This document shows positions 11,154 through 37,082 of a stretch of DNA of 64,000 bases, piece by piece. Every line of letters begins with the position of its first letter. The first letter of the stretch is position 1. The notes beneath the pieces are model-generated. The model ran no database searches and was not told the DNA's origin. It was given only the letters and a program-made list of their open reading frames with translations. This stretch comes from Promethearchaeota archaeon (GTDB taxonomy: Archaea; Asgardarchaeota; Heimdallarchaeia; Hodarchaeales; Hodarchaeaceae). The position numbers were made by a program, and so were the translations under genes. The DNA is taken from positions 97,771 to 161,770 of the forward strand of contig JBHLMN010000015.1 in the NCBI GenBank assembly GCA_048938105.1, in the 5' to 3' direction.

Positions 11154-11159
11154 TCTTTT

Positions 11160-16558: not shown

Positions 16559-17014
16559 ATGCTTACAGAGGACGAATGGTTAGATAGACTAGCAATCGAA
16601 GCACAAGAGCTCGCGCGTGAGCAACCAACTTTTCGTACAGTTGATAATAATTTAACACATTGGCGGGGAGAGATATTAGGCTCGGGTTTGTATGAAGGGG
16701 GAGTATTTTTCATTGAAATTCATATTCCTCGGAAATATCCATTTGAACCCCCCAAAGTTCGTTTTAAAACTCCAATTTGGCATGTCAACATCTTTAAAGA
16801 GAAGGTATGTGTTGGAATCTTGGGGAAGGAATGGAGTCCCGCGTATAGTCTTGTTCAGATTGTTGAAACCATCAGATTCCTGTTAAATAGCCCGAATCCT
16901 GATGATCCGCTAAATGCCACGGCATCTCGTCAATGGAAGAAAGATCGGGAGCAATTCAGGCAACAAGCAGTGGATTATGTTAAAAGATATGCCCACTGGA
17001 ATCAGCAGTACTGA
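16559..17014 (+). CDS. Ubiquitin-conjugating enzyme E2
   Basis: YEGGVF, YPFEPPKVRFKTPIWHVNI, catalytic Cys (KVCVGIL), WSPAYSL, PNPDDPLN. Confidence 0.95.
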   Translation: MLTEDEWLDRLAIEAQELAREQPTFRTVDNNLTHWRGEILGSGLYEGGVFFIEIHIPRKYPFEPPKVRFKTPIWHVNIFKEKVCVGILGKEWSPAYSLVQIVETIRFLLNSPNPDDPLNATASRQWKKDREQFRQQAVDYVKRYAHWNQQY

Positions 17015-17016
17015 AT

Positions 17017-18033
17017 CTAGACGCCACGATGGATTTCTCGTTTTACAGTGTACTTCGGAGGATGTTCTAATCGGGCAAAGATATGGTCTGCGTTGACCTC
17101 TTCTTTCAACCTATCCAACCAATCGACGTCCTCTTCGTTTTCCAAGCCCCAAATAAAAAGAGCTTTTTTGTAACCACTTTCTTCATATAAAGTAGAACTT
17201 CTAATTGATCGCAATAATATGTCCCAACCTGAAGTATCAGGTTCAGGGTACATTGGAGAGTAAGGCATGAGATGAAAGACAATGTAACCACTAATTTCAA
17301 TAATTGCATCAAGATTGATTCCAAAATGACGAATGAATCCCTCACTCCAATCAGTTTCAGGATCAACTGGAACTATCATCCCAACATCCAGATCTGGATG
17401 TTCACCTTTAGCCATTTCTGTTGCCTCTCGAAAGGCTGTGGTAATAAGATCGGCGCGCCATTCTTCAAAAATTCTCTGGATCGCAGGATCCTTCTGAATG
17501 TCGAGGTACGTAATGTCTAGGCTTGATCCAGAGATTTCAGCAAATTTTCTCACACTTCGTCGGGAAAATGAGTACTCTTGTCTGGGGAATAAAAATTCTT
17601 GTAAGATCAGTGATTTGATGGGTTTTGTGGCTACCTCGCGGGCAATATGGTTCAAGTGTTTCCAATAGCCTTCCATTGATGGGTCTACATAATCGTGTAT
17701 TGCAGTTCCGTCAGATCGGCCAATGGAATAATTAGGATCTGCGCCAAGATATGAATCACCAAATGCATAAGATATTGCATGAGTTCTAATACCCAGATCA
17801 CTAGCTAATTCAGTAAAATCTGTGAAAAAATTTTCATAATTACGATCACTGGGAGCAGCTCCAGATCGATAAGTCACTAATCCATCTTCTTTTTTACAAA
17901 CTAGAGCCACTTCCTCGACTAAACCACCATACTCGGCTAAAAAAGCGTTTGCACCCTTTTCTGCTGGAGAATCTTTGGCTGTGGGATCAATAACGGGAAT
18001 ATAATTATGGTCGATTAATTGGTCAATCTTCAA
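17017..18033 (-). CDS. Glycoside-hydrolase-like (GHL10/DUF187-type) TIM-barrel protein
   Basis: YVDPS, LQEFLFP, EEWRADLIT and HLMPY resemble GHL10 segments; no signal peptide. Confidence 0.5.
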   Translation of the reverse strand: MKIDQLIDHNYIPVIDPTAKDSPAEKGANAFLAEYGGLVEEVALVCKKEDGLVTYRSGAAPSDRNYENFFTDFTELASDLGIRTHAISYAFGDSYLGADPNYSIGRSDGTAIHDYVDPSMEGYWKHLNHIAREVATKPIKSLILQEFLFPRQEYSFSRRSVRKFAEISGSSLDITYLDIQKDPAIQRIFEEWRADLITTAFREATEMAKGEHPDLDVGMIVPVDPETDWSEGFIRHFGINLDAIIEISGYIVFHLMPYSPMYPEPDTSGWDILLRSIRSSTLYEESGYKKALFIWGLENEEDVDWLDRLKEEVNADHIFARLEHPPKYTVKREIHRGV

Positions 18034-18231
18034 TTCTCACATCTACCAACTTTGCTTAGAAGATACTTGGTTATTAGAATCTTTCTTTTTGCATTGCTTT
18101 TTAAAAATTATCCTTTCTTTTGATTTTAGTACTTAAGAACGATTAATTATCTCCTCAAACACAAACCATTAAAAATTCGAAGATTAGAAAGGGAATAAAT
18201 AATAACAAATCTCGAATCATGGTGAAACTAG

Positions 18232-19182
18232 ATGACTAATTTTGTAGAATGGGCTTCGGGAATCTATCGGGTAGTAGATGATGTTGGAAAACAGGGTGAA
18301 GAATATGCCAGCTATCTTGTTCTGGGTGATGAAAAAATCGCTATTATCGATCTTCCTTCACGCTCTATCGGAAAAGATATCATTTCCTTTGTGAAAAAAG
18401 CTGGTCGTGACCCTTCGACAGAAATTCGATATCTTATTCTTACTCACACTCACCCCGATCATTGGGCTGGGATTGATTCATTAAAAAAAATCCAACCACA
18501 AGTGTGGCTTCATGAATCTGGGGTAGACGCATTAAAAGAAGGGAAGAAATATATATTGGAGAAGCAGTTTCCTAACCCCTCTAAATTCAGCTTAGCAATG
18601 AAATCTTCCCTTTTCTCTAAAATTGGAAAAGTAAAAGAGGAGCTTATCCACCCATTTGATAAAAGTGAGACACTTGATTTGGGGGGCGAAGAACTCATTT
18701 TACAAAATTCTGGTGGCCACTCTGCCGATTCTATATTAATTCAAGCTTATCGCGGAGGATGTACTTTTATTGGAGATGAAGGTAATATATATCCAGAGAA
18801 ACCAGCTGCCTTCTTTATTGACAGCACAGGAAGCCCAGACAGAAGATTAAAACTGTTAGAGTTGTTGAGCAACCTTAAAACGGAAGTAATCTGTCCTACC
18901 CATCAAAGTCCAGTCCCAAAACCCGTTGAACTTTATATTAACGATTTAATCTTTGAACATAAGCATACCAAAGATACAATCTATGATCTGGTAGTTAGTG
19001 CAGGTGAAGCTAAAGGATTCTATATTGCAGAGGAATATCAACGCATTTTAGGTTTTAATTGGGAAACACCATTTAAAGAGTTGGGTGTTGCCGAAACAAC
19101 TGTGACTGCGTTCCTTAAACAGCTAGAGAAAGAGGGAAGAGTTCGTTACGAATCCCATACTCAACGTTGGTGTATCCTCTAA
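18232..19182 (+). CDS. MBL-fold metallo-hydrolase with C-terminal winged helix
   Basis: THTHPDHWAG, GGHSADS, IGD and CPTH motifs. Confidence 0.88.
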   Translation: MTNFVEWASGIYRVVDDVGKQGEEYASYLVLGDEKIAIIDLPSRSIGKDIISFVKKAGRDPSTEIRYLILTHTHPDHWAGIDSLKKIQPQVWLHESGVDALKEGKKYILEKQFPNPSKFSLAMKSSLFSKIGKVKEELIHPFDKSETLDLGGEELILQNSGGHSADSILIQAYRGGCTFIGDEGNIYPEKPAAFFIDSTGSPDRRLKLLELLSNLKTEVICPTHQSPVPKPVELYINDLIFEHKHTKDTIYDLVVSAGEAKGFYIAEEYQRILGFNWETPFKELGVAETTVTAFLKQLEKEGRVRYESHTQRWCIL

Positions 19183-19344: not shown

Positions 19345-19794
19345 TTAATTAACAAACCATGCAGATTCTTTCATAATATCAATGTCAATGGAGATCCATT
19401 TATCTTGGGGTTGAGCTATACGCGATTCATAGAGAAGTCGGAGATAAATGTAGGTCTCTGGTTCATATAAATATAACTCCCAAATTTTCCCTGTGTGGAT
19501 TTGAAACTCCTGAACACGATTATCCCGAATTGTACCATTAATCAGATTACATTGGATTATTTCCCCATTAATATCAGAGACATTCTTTTCAATGGTTTGA
19601 GTAAGTATCTGCAATAAATCGTCAAGATCTATATCTTTTGTCGGATAAATGTTCCAAGTAACTGTGATGTTTTGTTTTCGGCTATTGATCCTTACTGGCA
19701 ATGTTTTTGATCTATCTGAATAATAGGAATCGATTATGCTTTCGATTTTTGGAATTAATTGTTGAAGAACCTTAGGTAGGATTTCTAAGTTCAA
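19345..19794 (-). CDS. Hypothetical protein (probable TTG start 4 bp after the RING stop)
   Basis: The listed ORF 19345-19911 overlaps the RING gene; the in-frame TTG at 19794 gives 149 aa. Confidence 0.55.
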   Translation of the reverse strand: MNLEILPKVLQQLIPKIESIIDSYYSDRSKTLPVRINSRKQNITVTWNIYPTKDIDLDDLLQILTQTIEKNVSDINGEIIQCNLINGTIRDNRVQEFQIHTGKIWELYLYEPETYIYLRLLYESRIAQPQDKWISIDIDIMKESAWFVN

Positions 19795-19798
19795 AGAA

Positions 19799-20128
19799 TC
19801 ACAACTTCCCGCGACAATAAGGACAAGTATGGTGTTTGGCAAGCCAACGCAGCATATGATCTTGATGGGCTTTTTGATGACAATGGGGACATTCCATATA
19901 TGAACTAGCATCTATTCCATAAATATCGATTGGTTTCCAACATATCATGCATTTGACAAGTTCAAAAGGATTCCATTCTCCTATGTTTTTGCTGATCAGT
20001 TTGATATTAGATGTACTGGAGACAGGAAATTTACTTGGAATATGAATACGATTATTATTAGTGCCTTTATCGACAGGGGATGATTGAAGACGAATCTTAG
20101 TAGGAAGCTTGAATACCTCAGGGCTCAT
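19799..20128 (-). CDS. RING-finger protein (putative E3 ligase)
   Basis: CMIC...CPHC...AHQDH..RW....CPYCR RING-like pattern with the conserved Trp. Confidence 0.85.
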   Translation of the reverse strand: MSPEVFKLPTKIRLQSSPVDKGTNNNRIHIPSKFPVSSTSNIKLISKNIGEWNPFELVKCMICWKPIDIYGIDASSYMECPHCHQKAHQDHMLRWLAKHHTCPYCRGKL

Positions 20129-20522
20129 TTTCGGTCACATGATCCTTCAACTGTTCTAAAATATTCGATAGGTCTTCTTTTAAAGCCACCAAGTCAGCTT
20201 TTTCTACAAGTAATTGTTTCTTTGAAAAATCTCGATTATACTCTTGTTGAGACTCAATTTTCGTTAAGATAACAATGAGATCTGCAAATGTTTCGCTCAG
20301 TCCTCCCAGTTTCTTACTGTATTTCGCCAATTGCGAATTTATATCCACTAAGGCTTGACGGATTTGGTCCTGAAACTGGTTAATTTGTGAGAGATGATTG
20401 TTTAATGAAGCCATTTCCGCATAAACAGTGTTTATTGTAGTTTCAAGACCTTTAACTGTAGGAATGTCACCTTTAGGAGTTTTAAGGGTCTCAATCTCTA
20501 CTTTTCGGGGTTCATTGGACAT
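20118..20522 (-). CDS. Coiled-coil protein
   Basis: Heptad-rich 134-aa ORF overlapping the RING start. Confidence 0.7.
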   Translation of the reverse strand: MSNEPRKVEIETLKTPKGDIPTVKGLETTINTVYAEMASLNNHLSQINQFQDQIRQALVDINSQLAKYSKKLGGLSETFADLIVILTKIESQQEYNRDFSKKQLLVEKADLVALKEDLSNILEQLKDHVTENEP

Positions 20523-20648: not shown

Positions 20649-21323
20649 ATGTCTAAGAATATCAATCGATACCCTGTATTTAGAGTTTTAATTAACGATG
20701 ATGCTTTTCTCACGACCCCATATCGAACAATCCACAAAAGGATCTATCATCGGATGCAAAGCAGTTTAAAAGACATCTATTCGGTGGTACTATTAGGAAC
20801 AAGCGGTGTAGGGAAATCTACAATTGCTTTTTATCTAGAACATGGGTATCCTCCTCCGCGTGATATTAAACCTACGATTGCGTTCGGTATCACTCACGTA
20901 GTTATCCAAAAAACCGTGATGGGCTTGATCGATGTGGGAGGTCAGCGTAAATTCTTGGATATGCGTTATCACGAGCGTTTTGTACGCACTGCAGATGGTA
21001 TGGTCTTTATTGTTGATAGCTCGAGAAGAAATTTCAGATATGATGAGCAATGGTTTGATGACGCTCTACAATTGGTATCGAACCGGGTACCGATTCTTGT
21101 AATTGCTAATAAGCAAGATCTTCCAGGTGCTCTCTCCCCTGAATTCTTGAAAACACATTTCTTTGAAGAATTGCTGAAAAATAATGTCTATAATGTCTTT
21201 GGTACTGTGGCTGCCGACCCAGGAGGGATTAGAAGTGGTGAGAATATCCAGGTGGCTTTTCAGTACCTCATTGACCAAATGAAACTGAATCGTAAGTTTT
21301 TGATTAAACAAAGTCAAATCTAA
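20649..21323 (+). CDS. Arf-like small GTPase
   Basis: G1 GTSGVGKS, G2 PTI, G3 DVGGQ, G4 NKQD. Confidence 0.88.
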   Translation: MSKNINRYPVFRVLINDDAFLTTPYRTIHKRIYHRMQSSLKDIYSVVLLGTSGVGKSTIAFYLEHGYPPPRDIKPTIAFGITHVVIQKTVMGLIDVGGQRKFLDMRYHERFVRTADGMVFIVDSSRRNFRYDEQWFDDALQLVSNRVPILVIANKQDLPGALSPEFLKTHFFEELLKNNVYNVFGTVAADPGGIRSGENIQVAFQYLIDQMKLNRKFLIKQSQI

Positions 21324-21345: not shown

Positions 21346-22152
21346 GTGCGTGGTATTTTGTTCGAGCAAATTACTCGTGTAACCTCAGGTGTTCCTTATT
21401 TAGATGCATTAACCTCAGGTGGTTTTATCAAGGGGACAACCAATCTGGTAATTGGTCCTGCAGGGGCTGGTAAAACCATTTTTGGCTTACATTTTCTACA
21501 TGAGGGTGCACGACGGAATGAAAATGGCCTATTGGTAGCTATGCAAGAACCCCCTTGGGCTATTCGTCGGGATGCAAGTTCTTTCTCCTTTTTTGACCAT
21601 AACTTCTTTGCTGAACCAGAGAAAATTGTTATGCTTGATTTTACTCCCTCGGGTTGGGAATTATGGGATCCCGATAGTTTAACATATACTGAAGAGTCTG
21701 AACTGATGTTAGAGGCGGAGGGGGTTCCCTATAACGAAACCTCTCTACCTACTTTTCTTCATAAAGTGTTCTATCACATTAGTCAAGTGGTAGAAGAAAA
21801 AAAGATAGAACGTATTGTTATAGATCCCTTGGCAGCATTTCAGTTCTATGACTATGGAAATGACTTTGGATTCCTTAGAAAACTTACAACAGGATTTTTA
21901 ACAAATATTTCAGCATTGAATGTTACTACTCTTGCTATATCCGAGGTTTCAGGTGGCATGGAGCATTCACTTTTCGGAGAAGAATATATTGCGGATTCTA
22001 TTATTCATTTAGATACACTTTCAGTTAGAGGTGAAATGATTCGTATCTTAAGAATTGGGAAGATGCGAGCGACCAATCATACTAAACAAACGTTACGGTT
22101 TGAAATCAATCATCATGGAATCACTTTTCTTGATTCTGAAGACACAGATTGA
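21346..22152 (+). CDS. KaiC-like RecA-superfamily ATPase (single domain)
   Basis: TSGVPYLD, GGF, GPAGAGKT, RIVID, EYIADSII and KMR motifs. Confidence 0.9.
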   Translation: MRGILFEQITRVTSGVPYLDALTSGGFIKGTTNLVIGPAGAGKTIFGLHFLHEGARRNENGLLVAMQEPPWAIRRDASSFSFFDHNFFAEPEKIVMLDFTPSGWELWDPDSLTYTEESELMLEAEGVPYNETSLPTFLHKVFYHISQVVEEKKIERIVIDPLAAFQFYDYGNDFGFLRKLTTGFLTNISALNVTTLAISEVSGGMEHSLFGEEYIADSIIHLDTLSVRGEMIRILRIGKMRATNHTKQTLRFEINHHGITFLDSEDTD

Positions 22153-22309: not shown

Positions 22310-22564
22310 ATGAAGGAATTCATGATGCAGATAAATGTAGTTCAAGCTATTGGAGGCGGGGAGATCACAATGACTTGTGATAAGACAGATTCGGTTGCTG
22401 CTATCAAAGAAAGAGTAGCCCAACAAAAAAGGATACCAGCTAGATCGGTCATCCTCGTATTTCAGGGAAAACAACTCGATGAAAGTGAGACCCTAAAGTC
22501 TGCTGGGATCGAAGATATGGATAAGTTATATATGATCACACGAACTACAGGTGGCTCAACCTAA
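22310..22564 (+). CDS. Ubiquitin precursor (GG followed by ST)
   Basis: Beta-grasp pattern IKERV, LVFQGKQLDE, C-terminal RTTGG-ST. Confidence 0.93.
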   Translation: MKEFMMQINVVQAIGGGEITMTCDKTDSVAAIKERVAQQKRIPARSVILVFQGKQLDESETLKSAGIEDMDKLYMITRTTGGST

Positions 22565-22664: not shown

Positions 22665-23660
22665 ATGAGTGAGCGGTATAATCGTCAACTTTTGATAGAA
22701 CACTGGGATCAGAAAAAAATCCAGCAAAGTACCGTGACATTGGTTGGGCTAGGAGCATTGGGGAGTGTGGCTGGTACATCATTAGCAATGGCAGGAGTAG
22801 GAACACTCATTCTAGTTGATTTAGACACCATCGAATTGAGTAACCTGAATAGACAATTGCTTTTTCGGGCTGCAGATATAGGAAAACCGAAGGTTAAAGT
22901 CTGTGCAAACGTATTACAGGAAATTAATCCAGACGTTAATGTTATTACGTTATACATGCCTATTGAAAAGGCTCCACGCCATGTCCTAGAAACTTCGAGT
23001 GTCATCCTTGATGGTTTAGACACATTTCAAGCTCGTCGATGGGTAAACTCATTTGCAGTAGGGGCAAACATTCCTTTGATCTCTGGAGGGATGTATAGCT
23101 TTCTAGGAAATCTTCAAGTTGTTGTCCCCCAAAAAACTCCCTGTTTAGAATGCCAGTCACTAATTCCTGAAGAAGAGCTTCAAAAAGCCTGTACACCATT
23201 TGGAGAAGTGAGAAAAGAAACTCGACCTGCTGAAAACGAAAACGAATACATTCCATACGTTTCTAGTGTATCTTTTGTCATAGGGGGTCTTATGGCTCAA
23301 GAGGCTTTAAAAATCATTCTTGGATTACCCCCCTTGAAAGAGTATCTGTTTTGGGATGGAAAGACCGAGTTGTTCACATCGGTACCTCTTGAACGTCGTG
23401 AAGATTGTATTGTTTGTTCACCACGTTACCAGTTGCAAGCTATTCCTATTCGTTCTCCTATTGACCAACAACTAGGAGATTTTATAGCTCAACTACGATA
23501 CTCATTCAATCTGAGTTCTGAAATGGCATTGTTGTTTCAAACTCAGAGATTAACTGCCTCTGAAGAAAAGATAGGAAGTATCTTTCAATCAGGAGCTATT
23601 TTCAGGGTTGTTGATCCCACATTATCTACTCCCCTAAAATTCGTGATTAATATAGACTGA
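22665..23660 (+). CDS. Ubiquitin-activating enzyme E1 (ThiF/UBA family)
   Basis: RYNRQ, GLGALG, SNLNRQ, CLEC, putative catalytic KACT, CIVC, and a ~75-aa C-terminal domain. Confidence 0.92.
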   Translation: MSERYNRQLLIEHWDQKKIQQSTVTLVGLGALGSVAGTSLAMAGVGTLILVDLDTIELSNLNRQLLFRAADIGKPKVKVCANVLQEINPDVNVITLYMPIEKAPRHVLETSSVILDGLDTFQARRWVNSFAVGANIPLISGGMYSFLGNLQVVVPQKTPCLECQSLIPEEELQKACTPFGEVRKETRPAENENEYIPYVSSVSFVIGGLMAQEALKIILGLPPLKEYLFWDGKTELFTSVPLERREDCIVCSPRYQLQAIPIRSPIDQQLGDFIAQLRYSFNLSSEMALLFQTQRLTASEEKIGSIFQSGAIFRVVDPTLSTPLKFVINID

Positions 23661-23716: not shown

Positions 23717-24469
23717 TTAAATAAAGTTTGGTAATAAAAAAAGAACAATGTAGACAAGGGTGAGGATACCACTAATGCCATATGAATAATATTCGTTGAG
23801 TAAATGAGCTGTACGAATACCATTTCCACAATGATAAGCAACGAGGCCCAAAAAGGGGATGTAAAGGAGTTCAAATATAGCATAATTAGTCCAAGTTGTA
23901 GTAGTAATGGTTGCACTTTCTAATCCTGGTCCCAAAAAGGCAATTAAAATGCTGATTATTATTGAAGCAGGAATGAGAGGACCAAGTGAGTAGCCAACAA
24001 TTCCTTGTGTATCCCGAAAACTAGCTTTTCCTCCAAGGGTTTTTGCTATTAGCCAAACAATAAGACTACTAATGAGCCACCCGAATATCGCTAGGATAAT
24101 AAAGGCTATAGCAACAATCCAAGGAGCAATCACGAAATATAAGAAGTGCCAATCATGCCAAGATGTATCTGCACCTTTAAAAAAGAATGCACTTAATCGA
24201 AAACCATATGCTACAGAAACAAAATATAGTACAATTATGGCGCCAAAACGATCAGGGTTGACTCCAATCTCATTAAAAAGGCGTTTACTTTCTCTGGGGT
24301 CGAATAAACTTCGCCAAATTCGTAAAAACTTCTCTCTAATCGTGACACGAACTCGTTCTCTTGCCCGAACAATTTTTGTTAAGTCGAAGCCACAATAAGG
24401 GCAGAGAATGTAACCTGCTGGACTTCTTTCACTACAATTGGGACAGACGAGGGATTCAGACTCAGACAT
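23717..24469 (-). CDS. Yip1-domain membrane protein with N-terminal Zn ribbon
   Basis: CPNC..CPYC; LFDP..F; five TMs with AKTLGGKASF..TQGIVGYS Yip1 motif. Confidence 0.8.
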   Translation of the reverse strand: MSESESLVCPNCSERSPAGYILCPYCGFDLTKIVRARERVRVTIREKFLRIWRSLFDPRESKRLFNEIGVNPDRFGAIIVLYFVSVAYGFRLSAFFFKGADTSWHDWHFLYFVIAPWIVAIAFIILAIFGWLISSLIVWLIAKTLGGKASFRDTQGIVGYSLGPLIPASIIISILIAFLGPGLESATITTTTWTNYAIFELLYIPFLGLVAYHCGNGIRTAHLLNEYYSYGISGILTLVYIVLFLLPNFI

Positions 24470-24678: not shown

Positions 24679-25725
24679 TTACTCGACTGAAAAGGAGGAA
24701 GTCTGGTCTAATGAGAGTTTCTCTTCAATGAATTTAAACAACCACGGGACGCAAAAAATACCGAAAAACGACAAAATCGCATATCGTAAAAATCGTGCAA
24801 TTAGATAAAGAGGAAATTCTTTGAAAAGCATTCCAGCTATAGCACTCGAGCCAAAATATATGATAAAAATAATTATGAGGCCTAAAACAGCACGATAGAT
24901 AAGTATTTTCTTATTTGATCTGACTTCTTTCACTTTCAGATTGATATAACGACTTTCAAGTATATAACCAGTTGATAAACCTAGAAGTAATCCTGCATAT
25001 GAACTGGTGTCAGCAAGTTCAAAATCATGACCCATTAAAACAGTGATTAAATATGACATTACTACTGCTATTATAGGAGCTATTACTGCAATTATAAAAA
25101 GAAAGGAAGGAGAAGAATTCGCAATAAATTGTTCTATTTTAGGTAAGAGGATGATATAGAGCAGTGCAATTAATATTCCGAACAATACACCAACAATTAC
25201 ATCTGTCGGCCAATGGACACCAAGGTAAATTCGGGAAAGAGGAACCATAACTATCATGAAGACACTTATTATCCAAAGACCAAGGCAGCGCCAACGGGTT
25301 GCTAAAAATGTCCAAAACGACCCTACACTTGATGAATGTCCACTTGGAAATGTATAATCTGTTGGAAGTTGGCCTAGTATATCCTTGATCCCTTTTATTT
25401 CAGTTTTATTCAATCTATCATATTCAAGATAAGGTCTTTCAAGACCAAAAAAGCCTTTTATTGTGTATGTGATGATAGCAGTAAAAATTGCTAAAAAAGC
25501 AACATGGATAGCCAGTTTTTTATCAATACAGAAGAAAAGTACAATAATTATTCCAACGACAAAGAGTTTATCGCCAAAAAGAGTGATGAATCCAAAAATA
25601 AGATCAAGATATGGACTGAAAGTTTGTAGGAAAATTATTATTTGATCATCTAAAGAACCAAGTGATTCACCCATTTTTTTCCTTCCAAGAGTAATGTCAA
25701 GTTTAGAGAGAAGACAGGAAATCAT
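24679..25725 (-). CDS. PAP2-family membrane lipid phosphate phosphatase
   Basis: KGFFGLERP, FPSGH and SRIYLGVHWPTD motifs; multiple TMs. Confidence 0.92.
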   Translation of the reverse strand: MISCLLSKLDITLGRKKMGESLGSLDDQIIIFLQTFSPYLDLIFGFITLFGDKLFVVGIIIVLFFCIDKKLAIHVAFLAIFTAIITYTIKGFFGLERPYLEYDRLNKTEIKGIKDILGQLPTDYTFPSGHSSSVGSFWTFLATRWRCLGLWIISVFMIVMVPLSRIYLGVHWPTDVIVGVLFGILIALLYIILLPKIEQFIANSSPSFLFIIAVIAPIIAVVMSYLITVLMGHDFELADTSSYAGLLLGLSTGYILESRYINLKVKEVRSNKKILIYRAVLGLIIIFIIYFGSSAIAGMLFKEFPLYLIARFLRYAILSFFGIFCVPWLFKFIEEKLSLDQTSSFSVE

Positions 25726-28847: not shown

Positions 28848-30197
28848 TTAAGTGAAAAGATTAGTTTTCCCTGTTCGAACAAGCAATTCAGTAATTGCAT
28901 CATTTATTTTAGCAAGCTCTAATTCGAATTGCTTGATTAACTCGAAATAATCTCGACTTGATACTTTTTTTCTGCCTTCTTTGAGTTCCTGTAATGCCTT
29001 TTCGTTTGCTAATTTTCGTAACCGTAGATCGCGTAGGCGGTCGTCTAGAACTCCTGTTACAAAATCAGGTTCCCTTTCTTGATCGGAAGTTGACTCAGTC
29101 GTTCCCTTTGTATTTCCAATTATATTTGAATTAAAATTAAGAGCTGATAGGATTTTTTCCTGATAAATTTCGGAAGACCAATCTCGGAAAGGTTCATGGA
29201 CATATATATCACTGGGACGTCCGTAATAACTAAGTTGGAGTGCATCAAATATTCGCATTAGGGTTTGACAATCAGCTCGTAGTTCATAATCATGTTTAAT
29301 GGTTGTTATTTGAAGCTTATCTCGTTTAAGAAATCCAACGCTTGTTTTTTGAACATCAATCAGATCTTCAGGTGGAAATTCATCATTTACAACAATTTTG
29401 CGAGCTAGGATATTATGTCTTTTTTTACTAAGTATAACAATTCTATCAGTTGTGATTACTAAATCAATAGAACTTTTTCTAATACCACCATTTGGTAATC
29501 CAATATTTGGGAAAAAACCAATAGCTAATTCCCCAGGTACAAAAACAAAGACATCAAAGCACCGTCCAAGATGTCGTGCCATCTCTTCAAACTGATCGCA
29601 CTGATTTTCTATATCCTCAATTAGATCATGAATCGGTTGAAGTTTATCATGGACCGTTTGATCGAAACTGGTAATTTGCTTCTGGAAAAGACTAAGTTGA
29701 AGCGAAAGATTACGATAATCAGTAAAAGAGGAGTCTAATCCCATTAAACTGCGATAGAGTCGATTTAATTTCGAAGCATATTCTTGAAATTCTGATAAGG
29801 TAAAATTTTCGATTTTTTTGGTGTCAAGAAAGATTTTATCGATCTGATTTCCTGGGATTAAAAACTGTTTTCTAAAAGATCGTAGTCTAGATTCAAGATG
29901 CCCCGTACGTTTAAGTACGATTACTGGACGATAAGCTACTTGTTTAAGCGAGCGCTTCAACTCAAAAATATGTTCCAAAGTTTCAGTTTTCAAGTTTTGT
30001 GAAGGAGAACCCATTTCTACGTTCATTGAACCACAAGGACATTTAAACTGGGCATCATCGGTCTGTAGTTGAGAAGCGCACTTGGAACAGAATGCTGCAC
30101 CGCAATCATAACACTTTTGGGAATCTAATTCGCGAATCATGGTGCCACAAAACGAACAATAAAAGCTTGACATCCCGGAAGGCATCTTGAGCACCAC
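28848..30197 (-). CDS. FYVE-like Zn finger / coiled-coil / PH-like / steadiness-box-like protein
   Basis: C-x2-C-x11-C-x2-C-x4-C-x2-C-x12-C-x-C; DLVITTDRIVIL..LIDVQ..KLQITT PH/GRAM-like strands; C-terminus aligns with the Vps23 steadiness box. Confidence 0.65.
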   Translation of the reverse strand: MVLKMPSGMSSFYCSFCGTMIRELDSQKCYDCGAAFCSKCASQLQTDDAQFKCPCGSMNVEMGSPSQNLKTETLEHIFELKRSLKQVAYRPVIVLKRTGHLESRLRSFRKQFLIPGNQIDKIFLDTKKIENFTLSEFQEYASKLNRLYRSLMGLDSSFTDYRNLSLQLSLFQKQITSFDQTVHDKLQPIHDLIEDIENQCDQFEEMARHLGRCFDVFVFVPGELAIGFFPNIGLPNGGIRKSSIDLVITTDRIVILSKKRHNILARKIVVNDEFPPEDLIDVQKTSVGFLKRDKLQITTIKHDYELRADCQTLMRIFDALQLSYYGRPSDIYVHEPFRDWSSEIYQEKILSALNFNSNIIGNTKGTTESTSDQEREPDFVTGVLDDRLRDLRLRKLANEKALQELKEGRKKVSSRDYFELIKQFELELAKINDAITELLVRTGKTNLFT

Positions 30198-30379: not shown

Positions 30380-30973
30380 TTAAGCACCAATTTCGGACTC
30401 AACTGGCTTATAATACTTATATAACCAATTTGCACTTATTAAAAAGAATACACCGATTAACATCATTACCAAGAGGTATATATTAAGGATAGGAGGATAC
30501 CATGTAACTCCACTCATGAGAGAAACATGGTTCTTCCATGGTTCTTGAATCATTATTATGATTATGAGTAACCATTCTATAAAAATTGAAATAATGGTTA
30601 TTATTGATAACCAATAAAGGATAATAAAATTCTCTTTCCTTAAGAACTCAACTATCGCAAAAATTAATACGAGAATTCCCAACAGAATCATACACCAACC
30701 TGGGATCACGAGATAATCAATTATGCTGTCGAATGCAAAATCCGTAAAATAATATCCTGATTTTCCAGATTCATGAATATAATACGAGTCAAAGAAATAC
30801 GAATATTTGGTAATAAACGAATCTGCGGTAACGAAATACCATCTTTCACTCCTTTCAAAGAAAGGAAATATTTTAGCTGCAGGGATTATCACACAAAGGA
30901 TAAAAAATCCGATAAATAATAAGAAGCGAAATTTAGGCCATCTTTTTTGGTCGAGAGTCAGTTGAGAATGCAT
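30380..30973 (-). CDS. Hypothetical four-TM membrane protein
   Basis: 197-aa ORF with four hydrophobic segments. Confidence 0.65.
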   Translation of the reverse strand: MHSQLTLDQKRWPKFRFLLFIGFFILCVIIPAAKIFPFFERSERWYFVTADSFITKYSYFFDSYYIHESGKSGYYFTDFAFDSIIDYLVIPGWCMILLGILVLIFAIVEFLRKENFIILYWLSIITIISIFIEWLLIIIIMIQEPWKNHVSLMSGVTWYPPILNIYLLVMMLIGVFFLISANWLYKYYKPVESEIGA

Positions 30974-31508
30974 TGGTTTTTTCCTGAATCATCACTTACT
31001 ATTTAATCTTACATTGAAGCCCTATATAAGTTTTACTCATATCTTTCTATTCATGAATCCAGCTTTTTGATCAGATAATCAAGTACAATCCTGATTTTAG
31101 AAACTATCCGTAATTATTATGAAATTTACTTAAGATACCCTATTCATTGGTTTATATTTCGGGATCCGAGGTTTTAGAAGATATTTCTCTAAGTGTAGTT
31201 GCCATTCAGCTAGAGTGGTAAGTGGTTAATCGAAATCAATTATGAAATTATGAGCTATTTTTTTGAGGAAAAATTATGTTACTTAATCAGAGTATATTAG
31301 TGGATCCTGCAATTTGGATCCTGTATAACTATTTATTTAACTATCTTCGTTTATTAAAGACTTGAGGAACCAACATGCCTCCTGAGAATATGGATAAAGA
31401 CAAGTCAGAGGATAATTGATTGGAGCTTTAACCAACTACAGAGCGAATTTTTCAAAACTCTAGAACTAAAATCCTTAGAGGAAATTCAATCCAAGTGAGG
31501 TTAAACAG

Positions 31509-32717
31509 ATGCAAGTGACTCGCACAGAACAAATTTGGATCAAACCCCATAAATCCCTTTCTTGGTTCTGTCATCTCTCAAAAAACCTCTATAACGAAGG
31601 AAATTATCTGATTCGTCAAGAATTGTTCAATAACAAAAAATGGATTCGTTATAATGACCTGTACCACTTACTTAAGACTTCTAATAATTATCAACATCTC
31701 CCTGCCCAGACTAATCAACAGGTCTTGAAAATCCTTGATAGGAACTGGAAAGCTTTTTTTAGCACTATCAGAGAGTGGAAGAAGGATAAATCGAAATTTA
31801 ACGGAAGACCGAAAGCTCCTAGGTATAAACCAAAGAATGGAGAGTTTATACTGGTTTTTACGAACCAGCAAGTGAAATTAAAAGATAAAACCCTGCTATT
31901 TCCAAAAAAAGTAAGTTGTAAGCTGAATACTAGACTTGATGACAAAACTGACATCAGAGAGGTACGAATTATCCCAAAAGGGGTAGGTTATATTGTAGAA
32001 ATCGTCTACGAGAAGAATTTTCATCCTAAACTTATGAATAAAAATAAAATCATTGCAATTGATTTAGGGGTTCACAATTTCATAACTACAGTCAATAACA
32101 ATGGCTTGAAACCATTTGTTATTAAAGGTGGGGTTGTTAAATCCATTAATCAATACTATAACAAAGAACGAGCACGGATTCAATCAACTTATGATCGTCA
32201 GGGAATAAAAACAGGAAAGACCATGCAAAAATTAACAGCTAAACGCAATAAAAAGATAAATGACTATTTCCACAAAACTAGCAGAAAAATTATTGAGTAC
32301 TGCGTAATGAATGACATTGGAACAGTTGTGATCGGGTACAATTCTAATTGGAAGAAAAACAGCCAGATCGGTAAAAAGAATAATCAAAATTTTGTCACTA
32401 TTCCTTATAATAAGCTAATTCAGCAATTAGACTACAAAGCTGAAGAGCAGGGAATAACGGTCATTAAACAGGAGGAAAGTTATTCGAGTAAGTGTTCTTT
32501 TTTGGATAACGAGCCAATCGAAAAACATAACCGATTTCTAGGCCAAAGAATAACTAGAGGACTATTCAAATCCCACAAAGGTATTATCATTAATGCTGAT
32601 GTGAATGGGGCCTATAATATTTTGAAAAAAGCATTCCTGAACGCGGTTGACGCTGACAGGATAGAGGCTGTTGGGTTACATCCCACACGATGGAGACTAG
32701 CTGCGGTAACGAGCTAG
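31509..32717 (+). CDS. tnpB: RNA-guided endonuclease TnpB (IS200/IS605 family), copy 1
   Basis: KNLYN, RuvC motifs IAIDLG, QEESYSSK, INADVNGAYNI. Confidence 0.95.
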   Translation: MQVTRTEQIWIKPHKSLSWFCHLSKNLYNEGNYLIRQELFNNKKWIRYNDLYHLLKTSNNYQHLPAQTNQQVLKILDRNWKAFFSTIREWKKDKSKFNGRPKAPRYKPKNGEFILVFTNQQVKLKDKTLLFPKKVSCKLNTRLDDKTDIREVRIIPKGVGYIVEIVYEKNFHPKLMNKNKIIAIDLGVHNFITTVNNNGLKPFVIKGGVVKSINQYYNKERARIQSTYDRQGIKTGKTMQKLTAKRNKKINDYFHKTSRKIIEYCVMNDIGTVVIGYNSNWKKNSQIGKKNNQNFVTIPYNKLIQQLDYKAEEQGITVIKQEESYSSKCSFLDNEPIEKHNRFLGQRITRGLFKSHKGIIINADVNGAYNILKKAFLNAVDADRIEAVGLHPTRWRLAAVTS

Positions 32718-32771: not shown

Positions 32772-32792
32772 TAAAGAATTATAAATGAAATC

Positions 32793-33551
32793 GTGCGAAA
32801 TCTACTCGGAATCATAGATGGGATGATTACAAGAATGGGATTACGGAGAATCGAAGAGAAACTCACTCAGGAAGCTGAGATGAAGCGTAAAGGCGCAGAA
32901 TTAGCACTGAAATCTTTAGAGGAAATGACCCAAAAAGTACAGGATCTTCATAAAGATTTGGAAAAATTAGAAAAAAGATATCAGACAGATTTAAAGAAGA
33001 ATCCCGAATTGTCTCGACGACTAATGGCACTTCGAGAGGAATTAGGCCTTCCCCGTGCCATAGGCATTTATGAGATAGGGAAACAGCCAAGTTTGATGCA
33101 GCGATTGAAAGGGAAGGATGAATATCATAATGTCTTGGCATTACGAATCTTAGAGCTAGGAAAACAAATACGAAGTCAGACTGGTGGACTTCTCAGTGTC
33201 TCAGAATTAACCTTAAAGTTAAGTGATGAGAGTCAAGGAATTACTACCTCAATTGATGACATTACAACAGCTCTCAATTTGTTGAAAAAGAATGGAATGA
33301 TTCATGATATCCGTCAATTAGCAGGGATGAAAGTTGTAGTGTTTATTGATCCTAACCTAACTACAGACCACCAAACTATCTTAGAATTTGCAGCTCGATT
33401 TCAGGGTCAAATCAGCTTAACTGAATTAGTTAGAGAGACATCTTGGACACTGGAACGTGTAAACCAGGGGTTAACACAATTAATCCAACAAAAAATTGCA
33501 ATTAAAACCGAAACTCTGGACGGAATAGTCATATCATTTCCAGGGATCTGA
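32793..33551 (+). CDS. ESCRT-II Vps22/Vps36-like (EAP30) protein; real start may be the ATG of MGLRRI
   Basis: N-terminal helix/coil, LKKNPE, TGGLLSVSEL winged helix, second winged helix ISLTELVRETSWTLERV. Confidence 0.88.
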   Translation: MRNLLGIIDGMITRMGLRRIEEKLTQEAEMKRKGAELALKSLEEMTQKVQDLHKDLEKLEKRYQTDLKKNPELSRRLMALREELGLPRAIGIYEIGKQPSLMQRLKGKDEYHNVLALRILELGKQIRSQTGGLLSVSELTLKLSDESQGITTSIDDITTALNLLKKNGMIHDIRQLAGMKVVVFIDPNLTTDHQTILEFAARFQGQISLTELVRETSWTLERVNQGLTQLIQQKIAIKTETLDGIVISFPGI

Positions 33552-33755: not shown

Positions 33756-34433
33756 ATGAATTTAACCTTGAAAAGATTTAAAGGTTTTTTAACCGGAAAA
33801 AAACCTAGTAGCTCAACTGAAACAAAAGCAAAGCTGAAACGTACAATCAATCAAATGGAAGTCAAGATTAGGAACTATTCAAGGCAAGCAGATGAACAAT
33901 ATGAACTTGCCCGAACTTTGTTAAAATCAGGTAATAAATTAGGAGCTCAACAGGCATTAAAACGCCGTGAACTCTATTTAACCCAAGTTTCAAACACACA
34001 CAATAAGATTGCAAACCTCCAGCGAACAATTGATACTTTAGACGTATCAGCAGACAATGTTACTCTAACAGAAACTCTCGCTTCTGCTCAAACAGCTATT
34101 GATGCTAATATTGAAGCAGCTTCTCCTGAAAGAACAGAAGAAGTAATGATGTCCTTAGAAGACTCTATTGAAATGGTTTCAGGTATGGAAGAAGCGTTAA
34201 CAGACACTTCAATTACTGAAATTGGAATGGATGTTGAAGCAGATGATCGCATCTCTCAACAAATGGCTGAATTGGAAGCGGAATTAGCTTCTGGTTCGCT
34301 CCCAGAACCAAGTGTGGAGGTAAGCACTCCTTCTCCCCCTGTAACGGAAACATCATCTACTACTAAACGTGAAGCTGAGAAAAAGAAACTAGATGAAATG
34401 CGACGACAAATTGAAGAAGGTCTGAGGTCTTAA
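33756..34433 (+). CDS. ESCRT-III Snf7 (Vps20/32/60-class)
   Basis: Basic N-terminal half with GNKLGAQQALKRR, acidic C-terminal half, LPEP MIM2-like segment. Confidence 0.9.
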   Translation: MNLTLKRFKGFLTGKKPSSSTETKAKLKRTINQMEVKIRNYSRQADEQYELARTLLKSGNKLGAQQALKRRELYLTQVSNTHNKIANLQRTIDTLDVSADNVTLTETLASAQTAIDANIEAASPERTEEVMMSLEDSIEMVSGMEEALTDTSITEIGMDVEADDRISQQMAELEAELASGSLPEPSVEVSTPSPPVTETSSTTKREAEKKKLDEMRRQIEEGLRS

Positions 34434-34435
34434 GA

Positions 34436-35053
34436 ATGGTTTTTGACAAGTTTGGAAATTGGTTAAAAGGTGGAGGTCGTAGCGATGTTAGATCCACACG
34501 AAAATGGATTGTGCGCCTACGCATGGTCGAAAAACGGATGAATCGTCAGCGAAACAAGCTCATTAAAGAAGAAAAACGGATGCTCAAGGAAGTTGAAAGT
34601 TCAATCGAAGCTGGCGATATGACAACAGCACGATTATTAGCTAAAGATGTAGCTAAAAATCGAACCATGGCTCGTGGATGTCAACAAATGGCAAGTCGAG
34701 TAAAAGGTATCAAATTCAAATTAGAGCAGGCTGCTGCAACCCAAGCCATAGGTCAAGATCTCAAAGGGCTAGTAAGAACCCTCCACACAATGAATAAACA
34801 ACTTAAGATTCCTCAGCTTGAAGGTGTCCTTCAACAAATGGAGATTGAAACCGAAAGAGTTGATATGGCTACAGAGGCTATGGATGAAGGTTTCGAGATG
34901 ATGACTTCAGATGTTGAAGAGGACGAAATGGTAGACAAGATAATTGGGGAATTGAGTGCCTCAAAAGCAGCTGCAGCTGACTTTGGACTTCCATCACCGG
35001 ACATTCGTAGTCAAGAACTTCAAAAAGAATTGGAGAAAATCAAAAAAGGATAG
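34436..35053 (+). CDS. ESCRT-III Vps2/24/46-class
   Basis: ARLLAKDVAKNR, M..QLKIPQL, C-terminal LQKELEKIK MIM1-like helix. Confidence 0.9.
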   Translation: MVFDKFGNWLKGGGRSDVRSTRKWIVRLRMVEKRMNRQRNKLIKEEKRMLKEVESSIEAGDMTTARLLAKDVAKNRTMARGCQQMASRVKGIKFKLEQAAATQAIGQDLKGLVRTLHTMNKQLKIPQLEGVLQQMEIETERVDMATEAMDEGFEMMTSDVEEDEMVDKIIGELSASKAAAADFGLPSPDIRSQELQKELEKIKKG

Positions 35054-35111
35054 ATAAGAACCCACCTCAGATTTTCTTTCTCTTAATTGGGTATTTTCTG
35101 GTGATTAAATT

Positions 35112-36257
35112 ATGAGCTCCCCCTTGTTTGATGCTGCTAAAAAGAATGCAGCCATGGCTTACAAACTCGATCAAAGTGGACAAACTTCCCAAGCAGTTCG
35201 GTACTATGTGAATGCTGCTGAACAGCTGCAGCAACTAATTAGTTTTACTGACGATCCAAGTATGAAAAATTTATATTATCAAAAAGCCATGGAATATATT
35301 TTACGTGTAAAGGAAATTCGTGGGATTGTGGGGTCTTCTGAATCTAAGACAGGTTCCACTGCAGCACCTTCAATTGAAGATGATGAGATTTCAGGGGCCA
35401 TCTCAAGCGTTATTGTTAGAGAAAAGCCTAATGTTAAGTGGGAAGATGTTGCTGGGATGGAAGCTGCAAAACGCGCCCTCCGCGAAGCTGTCATTCTCCC
35501 AATGTCTCGACCAGATCTATTCAAAGGCGCTCGCAAACCATGGAAAGGAATCTTGATGTTCGGCCCCCCTGGCTGTGGAAAAACGTATCTCTGTAAGGCT
35601 GTTGCGTCAGAAGTAGATTCAACCTTTTTTTCTGTAAGTGCAGCCAATTTGATCAGTAAGTGGCTTGGAGAGTCCGAAAAATTAGTTAAAGAACTGTATG
35701 ATCGTGCTATTGAAGAATCACCTTCCATAATATTCTTTGATGAAATAGATGCCCTTGCAGGATCAAGAGGCGGTAGCTCTGAGGGAGAAGCAATGCGTCG
35801 GGTTAAAACACAGCTACTACAGGCGGTCGAGGGGTTTGGAACAGGAGAAGAACTACTGGTTACAGTAGGGGCTACAAATACACCCTGGGATATTGATGCA
35901 GCTATGCGTAGACGATTCGAGCGACGGGTTTATGTTACATTACCAACAACTGAAGCTCGGGGAATTATGTTTCAAATTCATACCCGTGGTGTGAAATTAG
36001 ATTCAGATGTTAGTTTTGAAGAATTAGCAAAGTATACTGCGGGGTACAGTGCTGCAGATATTGCTCTCCTCTGTCGTGAGGCCTTAATGCATCCCATTCG
36101 GGAACTCGATGCTGAAGGGGCATTGAAAGATGCAACTATTCAACCTCGAGCCCCTAACTTTAACGATTTTGTCGTTTCTATGGAAAATATCAAGCCATCG
36201 GTATCACCTAAAGAACTGAGCAGGTATGAAGATTGGAAAGATCAATTTGGAGGATAA
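35112..36257 (+). CDS. vps4: Vps4 AAA ATPase (MIT + AAA)
   Basis: MIT domain, EKPNVKWEDVAG, GPPGCGKT, SKWLGESEK, FDEID, ATNTPW, RRRFERR, C-terminal QFG. Confidence 0.97.
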   Translation: MSSPLFDAAKKNAAMAYKLDQSGQTSQAVRYYVNAAEQLQQLISFTDDPSMKNLYYQKAMEYILRVKEIRGIVGSSESKTGSTAAPSIEDDEISGAISSVIVREKPNVKWEDVAGMEAAKRALREAVILPMSRPDLFKGARKPWKGILMFGPPGCGKTYLCKAVASEVDSTFFSVSAANLISKWLGESEKLVKELYDRAIEESPSIIFFDEIDALAGSRGGSSEGEAMRRVKTQLLQAVEGFGTGEELLVTVGATNTPWDIDAAMRRRFERRVYVTLPTTEARGIMFQIHTRGVKLDSDVSFEELAKYTAGYSAADIALLCREALMHPIRELDAEGALKDATIQPRAPNFNDFVVSMENIKPSVSPKELSRYEDWKDQFGG

Positions 36258-36302
36258 CAAGTCCACAAAGTTGACTACATATGAACAGTAAGTTGGGTTT
36301 TT

Positions 36303-37082
36303 ATGGCTGAAATGCAGCGAAAAAAAGATAAGGAAAAGAAGAAAGCAGAATCCATTGATATACTTGGAACAGTCTTAGATGAAGTAACAAAAGAGCATTC
36401 GACTTCGAGATCACCTAATTTGGAACAAATAAGTGCTGAGGTGTCACGATCTTCCCCCACACTTTCATCTGTTCAAAGTAAATCGATATCAGCAGTGCGT
36501 ACTCCTCCTATCTCCACTATTCCCCAACCGGATATAAAACCAAAGCTTCAACCTGGAACTGTTGATCCACGCGTAAAACCTGTTCTACCTGCATGGGTTG
36601 GAAAACCTTGGCGTTGGATGGTGCCCGAAGATCCACAACTAAAAGAACAATGGTTGACAACATGGGGAGAGTTTATTCTGGACTTTGCCCGAGTACTGAA
36701 TTTCCATATCCTTGATCTCCAAGAGGTTGCTTCAGTGTATCCTTTTCAGAATCCTCTTTTGCACCAAAAATTAACGCTTTCTCATATTGTAATGATTTCT
36801 GAGTATCTTATAGAAATAGAAAAAGCGAAGTGGTGGGATGATGAGAAAACACGGTTACGAGTCTACTGGAAAACCTTAAAATCACATGCAGATGACTTGT
36901 TTCATTATGCCTTTCAACATGGTTATGATATGGTCACCGCATTCGACATTGTAAAGATGAAACAAGTGTGGTCAACATTACCTCCAACGGATATCCGAAT
37001 GCTAATGAAAATAATGGTAGAAACGAAACGAGCTTCTTGGGCTGATTCTGAACAGAAGACCATTGAGTTTCATTATACTTAA
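36303..37082 (+). CDS. vps25: ESCRT-II Vps25-like with long Ser/Pro-rich N-terminal extension
   Basis: QWLTTWGEFILDF, PFQN..KL, RLRVYWKT..AD..F winged-helix motifs of Vps25. Confidence 0.82.
   Translation: MAEMQRKKDKEKKKAESIDILGTVLDEVTKEHSTSRSPNLEQISAEVSRSSPTLSSVQSKSISAVRTPPISTIPQPDIKPKLQPGTVDPRVKPVLPAWVGKPWRWMVPEDPQLKEQWLTTWGEFILDFARVLNFHILDLQEVASVYPFQNPLLHQKLTLSHIVMISEYLIEIEKAKWWDDEKTRLRVYWKTLKSHADDLFHYAFQHGYDMVTAFDIVKMKQVWSTLPPTDIRMLMKIMVETKRASWADSEQKTIEFHYT

Follow-up and report, generated by a model that had tools for sequence, protein, structure and literature searches.

The ubiquitin-ESCRT neighbourhood of a Hodarchaeales archaeon: a known Asgard core with accessory genes that are probably old partners, order-specific additions and passengers

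[quoted passage not shown] The question is raised anew by a stretch of 64,000 nucleotides (here called the window) from a member of this order, Promethearchaeota archaeon (assembly GCA_048938105.1, contig JBHLMN010000015.1, positions 97,771 to 161,770). Between window positions 16559 and 37082 lie about 22 genes in nine apparent transcription units, as judged by orientation and spacing, among them genes for ubiquitin conjugation, the ESCRT complexes and two small GTPases. An earlier note on this DNA had seen in them a single locus for cargo tagging, membrane identity and scission. The analysis described here favours, at a probability of about three in four, another reading, in which the region represents the version that Hodarchaeales have of the Asgard ubiquitin-ESCRT neighbourhood and its accessory genes are of three kinds: old partners, order-specific additions and passengers.

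Gene order was established from the listing of open reading frames (ORFs) together with Pfam scans of the window proteins (Table 1). A complete E1/E2/RING-H2/ubiquitin-precursor set stands in one neighbourhood with ESCRT-I, ESCRT-II, both ESCRT-III classes and Vps4. The earlier note had claimed E2, RING, ubiquitin and E1 genes together, with Vps23, Vps28, Vps22/36, Vps25, both ESCRT-III classes and Vps4, within about 20 kb, and this core is borne out by Pfam for the first set (for RING by its motif and a weak score) and by Pfam and PDB matches for the second. The E2 retains the active-site HVN..C in its translation and is collinear in all same-genus loci. The RING protein has an intact C-x2-C...C-x-H...H-x2-H...C-x2-C motif despite its weak Pfam score, and orthologues are found in the ubiquitin clusters of other Asgard lineages. 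Ubiquitin is encoded as a precursor, since its sequence ends in GG-ST. In UEV-Vps23 an alignment of orthologues shows no cysteine after the HPN motif, the site of the catalytic cysteine in E2 enzymes; the true start of this protein is likely, from the orthologue alignment, the methionine of MDRDF, which would make the ORF call over-long by positions 27424-27474. Vps28 is the sole copy found in the genome. In the PDB, the ESCRT-IIIB protein is matched best by Heimdallarchaeota ESCRT-IIIB (2.7e-32) and then Snf7, and the ESCRT-IIIA protein by CHMP2A (2.5e-16), CHMP1B and CHMP3. The genome (5.85 Mb) is 99% complete, and contigs of the sample that is its likely source cover the cluster evenly, at about 18x. 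Most named homologues come from Candidatus Hodarchaeales/Hodarchaeota, with other Asgard labels on a few metagenome-assembled genomes.

The core steps of conjugation, reading and scission are drawn from established knowledge that includes published Asgard biochemistry, here Hatano et al. (2022, Nat Commun 13:3398), as cited in the literature; ubiquitin-binding and ubiquitylation assays are likewise contained in a preprint (bioRxiv 10.1101/2023.07.25.550441). Ubiquitin would be processed to expose GG and then conjugated to targets via E1, E2 and RING. The UEV domain of Vps23 would read the ubiquitin, ESCRT-II would bridge to ESCRT-III filaments, and Vps4 would remodel these filaments so that the membrane is cut. 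Two tiers of accessory proteins probably surround this core. The first holds the old conserved partners, a Zn-ribbon-Yip1 membrane protein and a GHL10-like protein. The second holds Hodarchaeales-only additions, namely an Arf-like GTPase with a KaiC-like ATPase (ArfL-KaiC), a Rab-like protein with an N-terminal domain, encoded upstream of Vps23-Vps28, and a PH-like protein; these may act as switches and adaptors, regulating the core or fixing its location.

Evidence from distant genomes is deepest for the Yip1 protein. Its Yip1 domain (residues 52-245) scores 50.3 bits in Pfam against a cut-off of 28.6, and the CPxC...CPxCG of its Zn ribbon is invariant across lineages that share the same architecture with the Yip1 domain. 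In this genome the gene is single copy and convergent with E1, 56 bp apart; a phylum-wide profile search found it in 344 of 399 genomes, nearly always in single copy. Within the second Hodarchaeales family, one genome (G077) has RING and Yip1-E1, and another (G078) has the order Yip1-Vps23-Vps28, which is also that of another Heimdallarchaeia family (G010 / CSMAG_1930). Yip1 is convergent on E1-E2-Ub-RING in Baldrarchaeota, one Odinarchaeota record, H2M.186 and one uncultured record. Three genomes of family f11 (Baldrarchaeota by two record titles) carry Yip1 on the contig of Vps28, and in a fourth the Yip1 gene is present without a Vps28 match. The distance from Yip1 to E1 is 26 bp in G106 (family f12), that from Yip1 to Vps28 is 7.5-7.8 kb in family f33, and in family f32 Yip1 is adjacent to ubiquitin. 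The linkage is patchy, yet spans at least eight GTDB families in which Yip1 adjoins E1 or Vps23. Yip1 is supported as a conserved partner of the ubiquitin/ESCRT machinery, and it may be a membrane-embedded partner (anchor, receptor or substrate) of an otherwise soluble apparatus. Yip1 is a recognised eukaryotic signature protein, and proteins with its domain are known from all three domains of life (Eme 2023, as cited in the literature).

The GHL10-like protein is supported in the same sense, less strongly. The window copy has no Pfam match; 6 of 13 members of its family match GHL10 in Pfam (best 2.5e-5), and the protein has atlas features of 0.94-0.97 to GHL10/GHL13/DUF4015 clusters. Homologues recur beside ubiquitin/ESCRT-I genes in four families: they adjoin ubiquitin in f33, lie 1 kb from Vps23 in f13 and are some 9 kb from Yip1-Ub in f32. 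As deep, cross-class neighbours of ubiquitin/ESCRT-I genes, the Zn-ribbon-Yip1 and GHL10-like genes offer the best candidates for partners that have so far escaped notice. The 134-residue helical protein, probably the asCOG005522 protein, is paired with RING in six genomes (G002, G007, G124, G297, G299 and G306) and in families f32 and f33; an asCOG005522/RING/Ub set is reported from other Asgard classes in bioRxiv 10.1101/2023.07.25.550441. Orthologues of the protein called at 188 residues have 148-157 residues, and homologues adjoin E1 in G002 (4e-11) and Yip1 in G396 (2e-15). The GHL10-like, helical and 188-residue genes had been overlooked by the earlier note, as had a metallo-beta-lactamase (MBL) hydrolase gene and an insertion at 30380-32717.

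Closer to home, conservation is far more extensive. The 40 kb around Vps28 were taken from 31 genomes and their ORFs searched with the window proteins. The same-genus neighbourhoods (10/10) show one order from the 97-residue gene upstream of E2 to RimK, as far as the contigs reach, and 18 Hodarchaeales loci located through their Yip1 gene are identical in order as far as their contigs extend. The exceptions to genus collinearity are a 197-residue ORF with TnpB, found in this genome only, and the phosphatase gene PAP2. Synteny within the genus is weak evidence for function, because collinearity continues outside the cluster.

The Arf-like GTPase scores 70.4 bits against a Pfam cut-off of 22.3, its best PDB matches are Arf/Arl proteins (1e-13 to 1e-9), and it carries the motifs DVGGQ, NKQD and TVAxDP, the last of which is present in this one alone of the 56 small-GTPase ORFs of the genome. 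In a tree of the GTPases of this genome it falls within a strongly supported Arf-like clade, and its divergence far exceeds that of the canonical Arf genes in the genome (70 vs 136-161 bits). Its orthologues begin where M36 stands, so that some 10 residues are left ahead of strand 1. The sequence most likely starts at this M36 (position 20754, 189 residues), the call being over-long by positions 20649-20753; from that start the protein would have no N-terminal amphipathic helix. The KaiC-like gene, whose product has a P-loop domain of KaiC/RecA type that does not imply a clock function, follows 22 bp 3' of the Arf-like gene, and KaiC-like orthologues are found in Hodarchaeales only. Three of the five KaiC-like genes of the genome follow a small-GTPase gene on the same strand. 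The further pairs lie at L113:2058-3423 (contig C18) and L114:3077-5041 (contig C39), with gaps of 1 bp and 654 bp, respectively, and their KaiC domains are confirmed by Pfam. Such pairing was seen at none of eight loci in other Heimdallarchaeia families, and a literature search found no link between KaiC-like proteins and small GTPases.

The protein that the earlier note had called a longin-Rab GTPase combines a disordered N-terminus, an alpha/beta domain (residues 81-208) and a Rab-like G domain (residues ~212-400), and it ends in ...GGKKS, with no C-terminal cysteine for prenylation. The Rab-like part of the name holds. The longin part is plausible but unproven, coming from a predicted model, in which the N-terminal domain has a longin/roadblock-like topology (beta2-alpha-beta3-alpha2 fits) at a predicted local distance difference test score of about 90. 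This domain has no match in Pfam or in a PDB profile search, and its atlas features stay below 0.9; comparison by hhalign gave P 0.014 with the Fuz_longin_1 domain and P 0.23 with roadblock. In a fold search the hits were taken up by the GTPase domain. A whole-library hidden Markov model search found three representatives of the N-domain family among 1.84 billion proteins, and the fusion is found, and syntenic, in one genus only.

Between the ESCRT-I and ESCRT-II operons of every same-genus locus stands the gene for a 449-residue protein, its stop codon 16 bp from that of the convergent vps28 in all same-genus genomes that cover it. The protein comprises an eight-cysteine Zn finger (11-60), three long helices (67-212), a PH-like domain (~213-330), predicted as a seven-strand beta sandwich capped by a C-terminal helix, and a C-terminal helical hairpin (378-442). 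Close homologues, at 52% identity or more, are mostly from Hodarchaeales records; the only others found, a longer one (29% identical) and a partial one (22%), come from two genomes of the second Hodarchaeales family, where the contigs end too soon to reveal any neighbour. The earlier note had called it FYVE/PH-like. The PH-like fold stands, as a predicted model, and FYVE does not: the C-x2-C-x4-C-x2-C spacing in the translation resembles a FYVE core, and a canonical FYVE finger is not supported, as the R(R/K)HHCR motif for phosphatidylinositol 3-phosphate (PI3P) is absent and the FYVE match (E 0.046, 14 bits) lies below the cut-off of 27.8. Foldseek ranked DH-PH RhoGEFs at the top; as evidence for a DH domain in the helical part these hits were rejected, at a root-mean-square deviation of ~20 A and a template modelling score of ~0.24, with only the PH part superposing well.

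The product of this gene could be a third subunit of ESCRT-I comparable to Vps37/Mvb12, or an adaptor resembling ESCRT-0, joining Vps23-Vps28 by its hairpin. The convergence on vps28, the predicted hairpin and the long helical stalk fit such a role, and hhalign gives a weak local profile match of 23 residues between the C-terminus and the steadiness-box helix of Vps23 (P 0.017). That match, however, is not significant and covers a single helix, the protein has no Mod_r or Vps37 signal in Pfam, and a published survey (PMC11188069) reports no extra steadiness-box/Vps28-C proteins in Hodarchaeia. A place in ESCRT-I or ESCRT-0 is unlikely. A complex prediction with the Vps23 C-terminus, the Vps28 N-terminus and the hairpin scored 0.00, which is not evidence either way.

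The GTPase, KaiC-like and PH-like genes plausibly encode regulators or adaptors that are specific to Hodarchaeales. An explicit version, in which ArfL-KaiC would gate ubiquitylation, the longin-like Rab would gate ESCRT-I, the PH-like protein would be an ESCRT-0/I-type adaptor and Yip1 an ancestral membrane component, is highly doubtful. If true, it would mean that an archaeon closely related to eukaryotes has a membrane-sorting pathway that depends on ubiquitin and is regulated by GTPases.

Several observations weigh against reading the accessory genes as partners and additions. Genus collinearity runs past the cluster on both sides, with insertions and deletions, and the conserved block also holds the genes on its 3' side, rpS2, RpoN and RimK. 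Comparison of positions shows Yip1 unlinked to Vps28 in families f4, f6, f7, f13 and f14, and the profile used for Yip1 derives from lineages already showing linkage, so that the best-scoring homologues are biased. In the second Hodarchaeales family the gene before E1 is Yip1, not KaiC-Ub, and no cluster gene lies in the 5 kb upstream of ArfL-KaiC, the contigs ending inside KaiC. GTPases near ESCRT genes elsewhere are non-orthologous and about as frequent as GTPase density predicts; as orthologues of the window GTPases, those within 20 kb of Vps28 in other families were rejected by reciprocal search.

A rival view is that everything apart from the core, and perhaps apart from Yip1 too, is a set of unrelated neighbours held together by little rearrangement within the genus, with PAP2 serving lipid-carrier or glycan metabolism, the MBL protein hydrolysis, and KaiC and the GTPases general signalling. 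The continuation of collinearity outside the cluster, and the presence of housekeeping genes in the same block, speak for this view, and since the genome has 56 small-GTPase ORFs, some GTPase adjacency is expected. The MBL hydrolase, whose C-terminus has a weak winged-helix match (BLACT_WH 1e-3, below the Pfam cut-off), is conserved at this position only within the genus, and neither it nor PAP2 was found beside ESCRT genes outside the genus in the loci examined. PAP2 is absent in three species (G071, G065 and G058), and a weakly similar PAP2 lies on the opposite strand in G059, G062, G063, G073 and others. KaiC and PH-like orthologues outside the genus come from the second Hodarchaeales family only, on contigs showing no ESCRT neighbour. 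The slot between Yip1 and the Rab fusion was also seen to vary by subclade, holding PAP2 on the Yip1 strand, the weakly similar PAP2 on the opposite strand, or nothing.

Other evidence runs counter to a purely passive neighbourhood. In all same-genus loci that span this part, ArfL-KaiC lies 157 bp upstream of ubiquitin and shares its strand, and the PH-like gene keeps its exact place between the two ESCRT operons. In other lineages, small GTPases fused to RING and longin domains are encoded in or near ubiquitin/ESCRT clusters; Arf genes are present as well in a second ubiquitin-like cluster of the same Hodarchaeales genomes, and the Poisson probability of two of 56 GTPases falling in one 20.5-kb block is about 0.02 by post hoc arithmetic. 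As an account of all the extras, passive retention is somewhat unlikely. For PAP2, the MBL hydrolase and the mobile-element insertion it is the probable one, and these are treated as the passengers of the favoured reading. The claim that the additional genes are syntenic with ubiquitin/ESCRT genes elsewhere divides: it stands for Yip1 in many lineages and falls for PAP2, which is variable, and for the Rab-like gene, confined to one genus. The ArfL-KaiC pair is orthologous and kept in both families, hence across the order, but its position directly upstream of Ub-E1 is shown in one genus only, and the PH-like gene is syntenic within the genus, its homologues beyond it lying on the short contigs mentioned above.

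The opposite view is that of the earlier note, an integrated proto-endosomal pathway in which ubiquitin would tag cargo, the Arf-like and longin-Rab GTPases together with Yip1, a lipid phosphatase and the FYVE/PH-like protein would define membrane identity by analogy with eukaryotes, and ESCRT would perform scission. The components are indeed all present and clustered: besides the core, the Arf-like GTPase, Yip1, the lipid phosphatase (PAP2) and the KaiC-like ATPase that the note had listed are each supported by Pfam. The deep linkage of Yip1 to the cluster, the predicted PH-like fold and the GTPase fusions to RING and longin domains in other lineages point the same way. Against this, the Arf-like protein after start correction is without an amphipathic N-helix, the Rab-like protein without a prenylation cysteine and the Zn finger without the PI3P motif, its FYVE score falling below the cut-off, and PAP2 is dispensable within the genus. 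A membrane-identity role for the locus is analogy only and unproven, several defining eukaryotic features being absent, and the integrated pathway as a whole is very unlikely. With the GTPase, KaiC-like and PH-like genes, as well as that for the lipid phosphatase, restricted to this lineage, a 'proto-endosomal pathway' remains an inference.

Small GTPases also occur with ubiquitin or ESCRT genes in other arrangements. In H2M.186 (L048:6944-7675, minus strand), a 243-residue protein with a RING finger (34-77) and an Arf-like GTPase (83-217) is encoded between RING/Ub and the helical-protein gene, inside the ubiquitin operon. It has the rare TVAxDP in common with the Arf-like GTPase of the window; monophyly of the two is only weakly supported (70/60) despite this shared motif. 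Fusions of Fuz_longin_1 with an Arf-like GTPase (L051:5061-5957, minus strand, 298 residues; L049:5665-6522, plus strand, 285 residues) are encoded at 1-6 kb from ESCRT genes in two Asgard lineages with small genomes, and form with the RING-GTPase fusion one well-supported clade (100/99). The second ubiquitin-like cluster of the present genome (L110, G000 contig C38:84000-103999) is collinear in five other Hodarchaeales genomes. It comprises a roadblock-GTPase-roadblock protein, GINS51, aIF2-alpha, GNAT, an EAP30-like protein (333 residues), SPFH/Band7, a 588-residue protein with a C1-like Zn finger, an E1 (409 residues), a ubiquitin-like protein (109 residues), an E2 (180 residues), a JAB/MPN protein (199 residues), two canonical Arf GTPases (2.8e-47 and 1.4e-39) and ThrRS, and it provides the JAB protease missing from the window. 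Together, the RING-Arf fusion, the longin-Arf fusions and the C38 cluster suggest a recurring link between GTPases and ubiquitin/ESCRT. A third, small cluster (L111, G000 contig C40:3933-6847) holds diverged Snf7-like, Vps4-like and Vps25-like paralogues; diverged Vps4 paralogues of Hodarchaeota are described as not associated with other ESCRT genes (PMC11188069).

The insertion of a 197-residue ORF with TnpB is absent from all relatives examined. It lies where the PH-like gene and the ESCRT-II/III operon diverge, with 75 bp left upstream of the Vps22 start, and cuts this operon off from the divergent intergenic region that it usually has. Elsewhere, on contig C6, a paralogue of the ORF adjoins TnpB; as the pair occurs only in this genome and the paralogue stands beside TnpB, it is taken to be a mobile insertion. 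The genome has ten TnpB-like ORFs, some of them fragments, and a near-identical second TnpB copy lies at window positions 41166-42374. Read depth over TnpB is 43-55x vs ~18x for the cluster, as expected of a multi-copy element. A second sample has no cover at 30480-31143 and no bridging contig, and nothing is concluded on insertion polymorphism. Further upstream, window positions ~7600-15900 form an insertion relative to several same-genus genomes, where the genes at 5482-7578 and 15966-16259 (the 97-residue gene) adjoin.

Parts of this neighbourhood have been described before. The accessible part of bioRxiv 10.1101/2023.07.25.550441 already reports Yip1 and a Rab-like GTPase in the Hodarchaeia cluster; it mentions neither the Arf-like nor the GHL10-like gene, and neither the PH-like protein nor the Rab-like protein's N-terminal domain. 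Makarova et al. 2024 (PMC11188069) leave Yip1, KaiC and PAP2 unmentioned and list no extra multidomain ESCRT proteins in Hodarchaeia. The useful outcome of the present analysis is a ranked list of candidate partners for the ubiquitin/ESCRT machinery.

Table 1. Features of the ubiquitin-ESCRT region, in window coordinates
Feature	Position	Strand	Length (residues)	Profile match
E2 ubiquitin-conjugating enzyme	16559-17014	+	151	Pfam UQ_con 2e-37
GHL10/DUF4015-like putative glycosyl-hydrolase-like protein	17017-18033	-	338	
MBL-fold hydrolase	18232-19182	+	316	Pfam Lactamase_B 3e-13
Last gene of helical-protein/RING operon	19345-19911	-	188 as called	no Pfam match
RING-H2 E3 ligase candidate	19799-20128	-	109	zf-RING_2 2e-4, below Pfam cut-off
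Helical/coiled-coil protein	20118-20522	-	134	only weak coiled-coil Pfam matches
Arf-like small GTPase	20649-21323	+		Pfam Arf 2e-19
KaiC-like single-domain ATPase	21346-22152	+	268	Pfam KaiC (PF06745) 2e-41, 142.5 bits
Ubiquitin precursor	22310-22564	+	84	Pfam ubiquitin 7e-16
E1-like ubiquitin-activating enzyme	22665-23660	+	331	Pfam ThiF 3e-62
Zn-ribbon + Yip1 multi-pass membrane protein	23717-24469	-	250	Pfam Yip1 3e-13
PAP2-superfamily phosphatase	24679-25725	-	348	Pfam PAP2 5e-20, 72 bits
Ras/Rab GTPase with 210-residue N-terminal extension	25892-27115	+	407	Pfam Ras/Rab 6e-38
UEV-Vps23 (ESCRT-I)	27424-28200	+		UQ_con 8e-13, UEV 6e-3
Vps28 (ESCRT-I)	28211-28831	+		Pfam VPS28 1e-11
Zn-finger/coiled-coil/PH-like protein	28848-30197	-	449	no Pfam match
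Insertion (whole)	30380-32717			
Insertion: ORF	30380-30973	-	197	
Insertion: TnpB/OrfB_IS605	31509-32717	+		Pfam OrfB_IS605 7e-25
Vps22/36-like EAP30 protein (ESCRT-II)	32793-33551	+		Pfam EAP30 2e-16
ESCRT-IIIB (Vps20/32/60 class)	33756-34433	+		Pfam Snf7 2e-13
ESCRT-IIIA (Vps2/24/46 class)	34436-35053	+		Pfam Snf7 4e-16
Vps4 AAA ATPase	35112-36257	+		Pfam MIT + AAA + Vps4_C
Vps25 (ESCRT-II)	36303-37082	+		Pfam ESCRT-II 1e-14

Among known systems, the Asgard Arf-family GTPases (ArfR/AArf) resemble the Arf-like protein of the window in an Arf domain above the Pfam cut-off and in the DVGGQ and NKQD motifs, whereas the window protein is more divergent and, from its probable start, without the N-terminal amphipathic helix. 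The accessible parts of the papers on Asgard Arf proteins (bioRxiv 10.1101/2024.02.28.582541; PMC11914678) discuss no ESCRT or ubiquitin gene neighbourhood. The eukaryotic Yip1/Yif1 family, Rab-interacting membrane proteins of the Golgi and endoplasmic reticulum, shares with the window protein a Yip1 domain above the Pfam cut-off, and here too a Rab-like GTPase is at hand, its gene lying 1.4 kb from Yip1. What sets the window protein apart is a Zn ribbon at its N-terminus; the Rab-like protein encoded nearby lacks a prenyl anchor, and the conserved neighbour is E1 or Vps23 rather than a GTPase.

The eukaryotic ESCRT-0/I/II/III-Vps4 multivesicular-body pathway has in common with this locus the reading of ubiquitin by UEV, the cascade of ESCRT-I, ESCRT-II and ESCRT-III, and Vps4, and the combination of a PH-like domain with a Zn finger in one protein recalls Vps36-GLUE and Vps27/Hrs taken together. 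The differences are that there is no VHS/FYVE/UIM ESCRT-0 and no PI3P motif here, and that the PH-like domain is not on the EAP30 protein. The closest likeness is to the Asgard ubiquitin-ESCRT clusters, from which the region differs in having Arf-like, KaiC-like, Yip1, PAP2, extended Rab-like, PH-like, MBL and GHL10-like genes interleaved. It shares with them the clustering of E1, E2, RING, ubiquitin, UEV-Vps23, Vps28, EAP30, Vps25, ESCRT-IIIA/B and Vps4 (Hatano et al. 2022, as cited in the literature; PMC11188069), as well as the pairing of RING with a helical asCOG005522-type protein. Such clustering was, as the earlier note had said, already known in Asgard archaea, and the present cluster is a lineage-specific, extended form of that known system.

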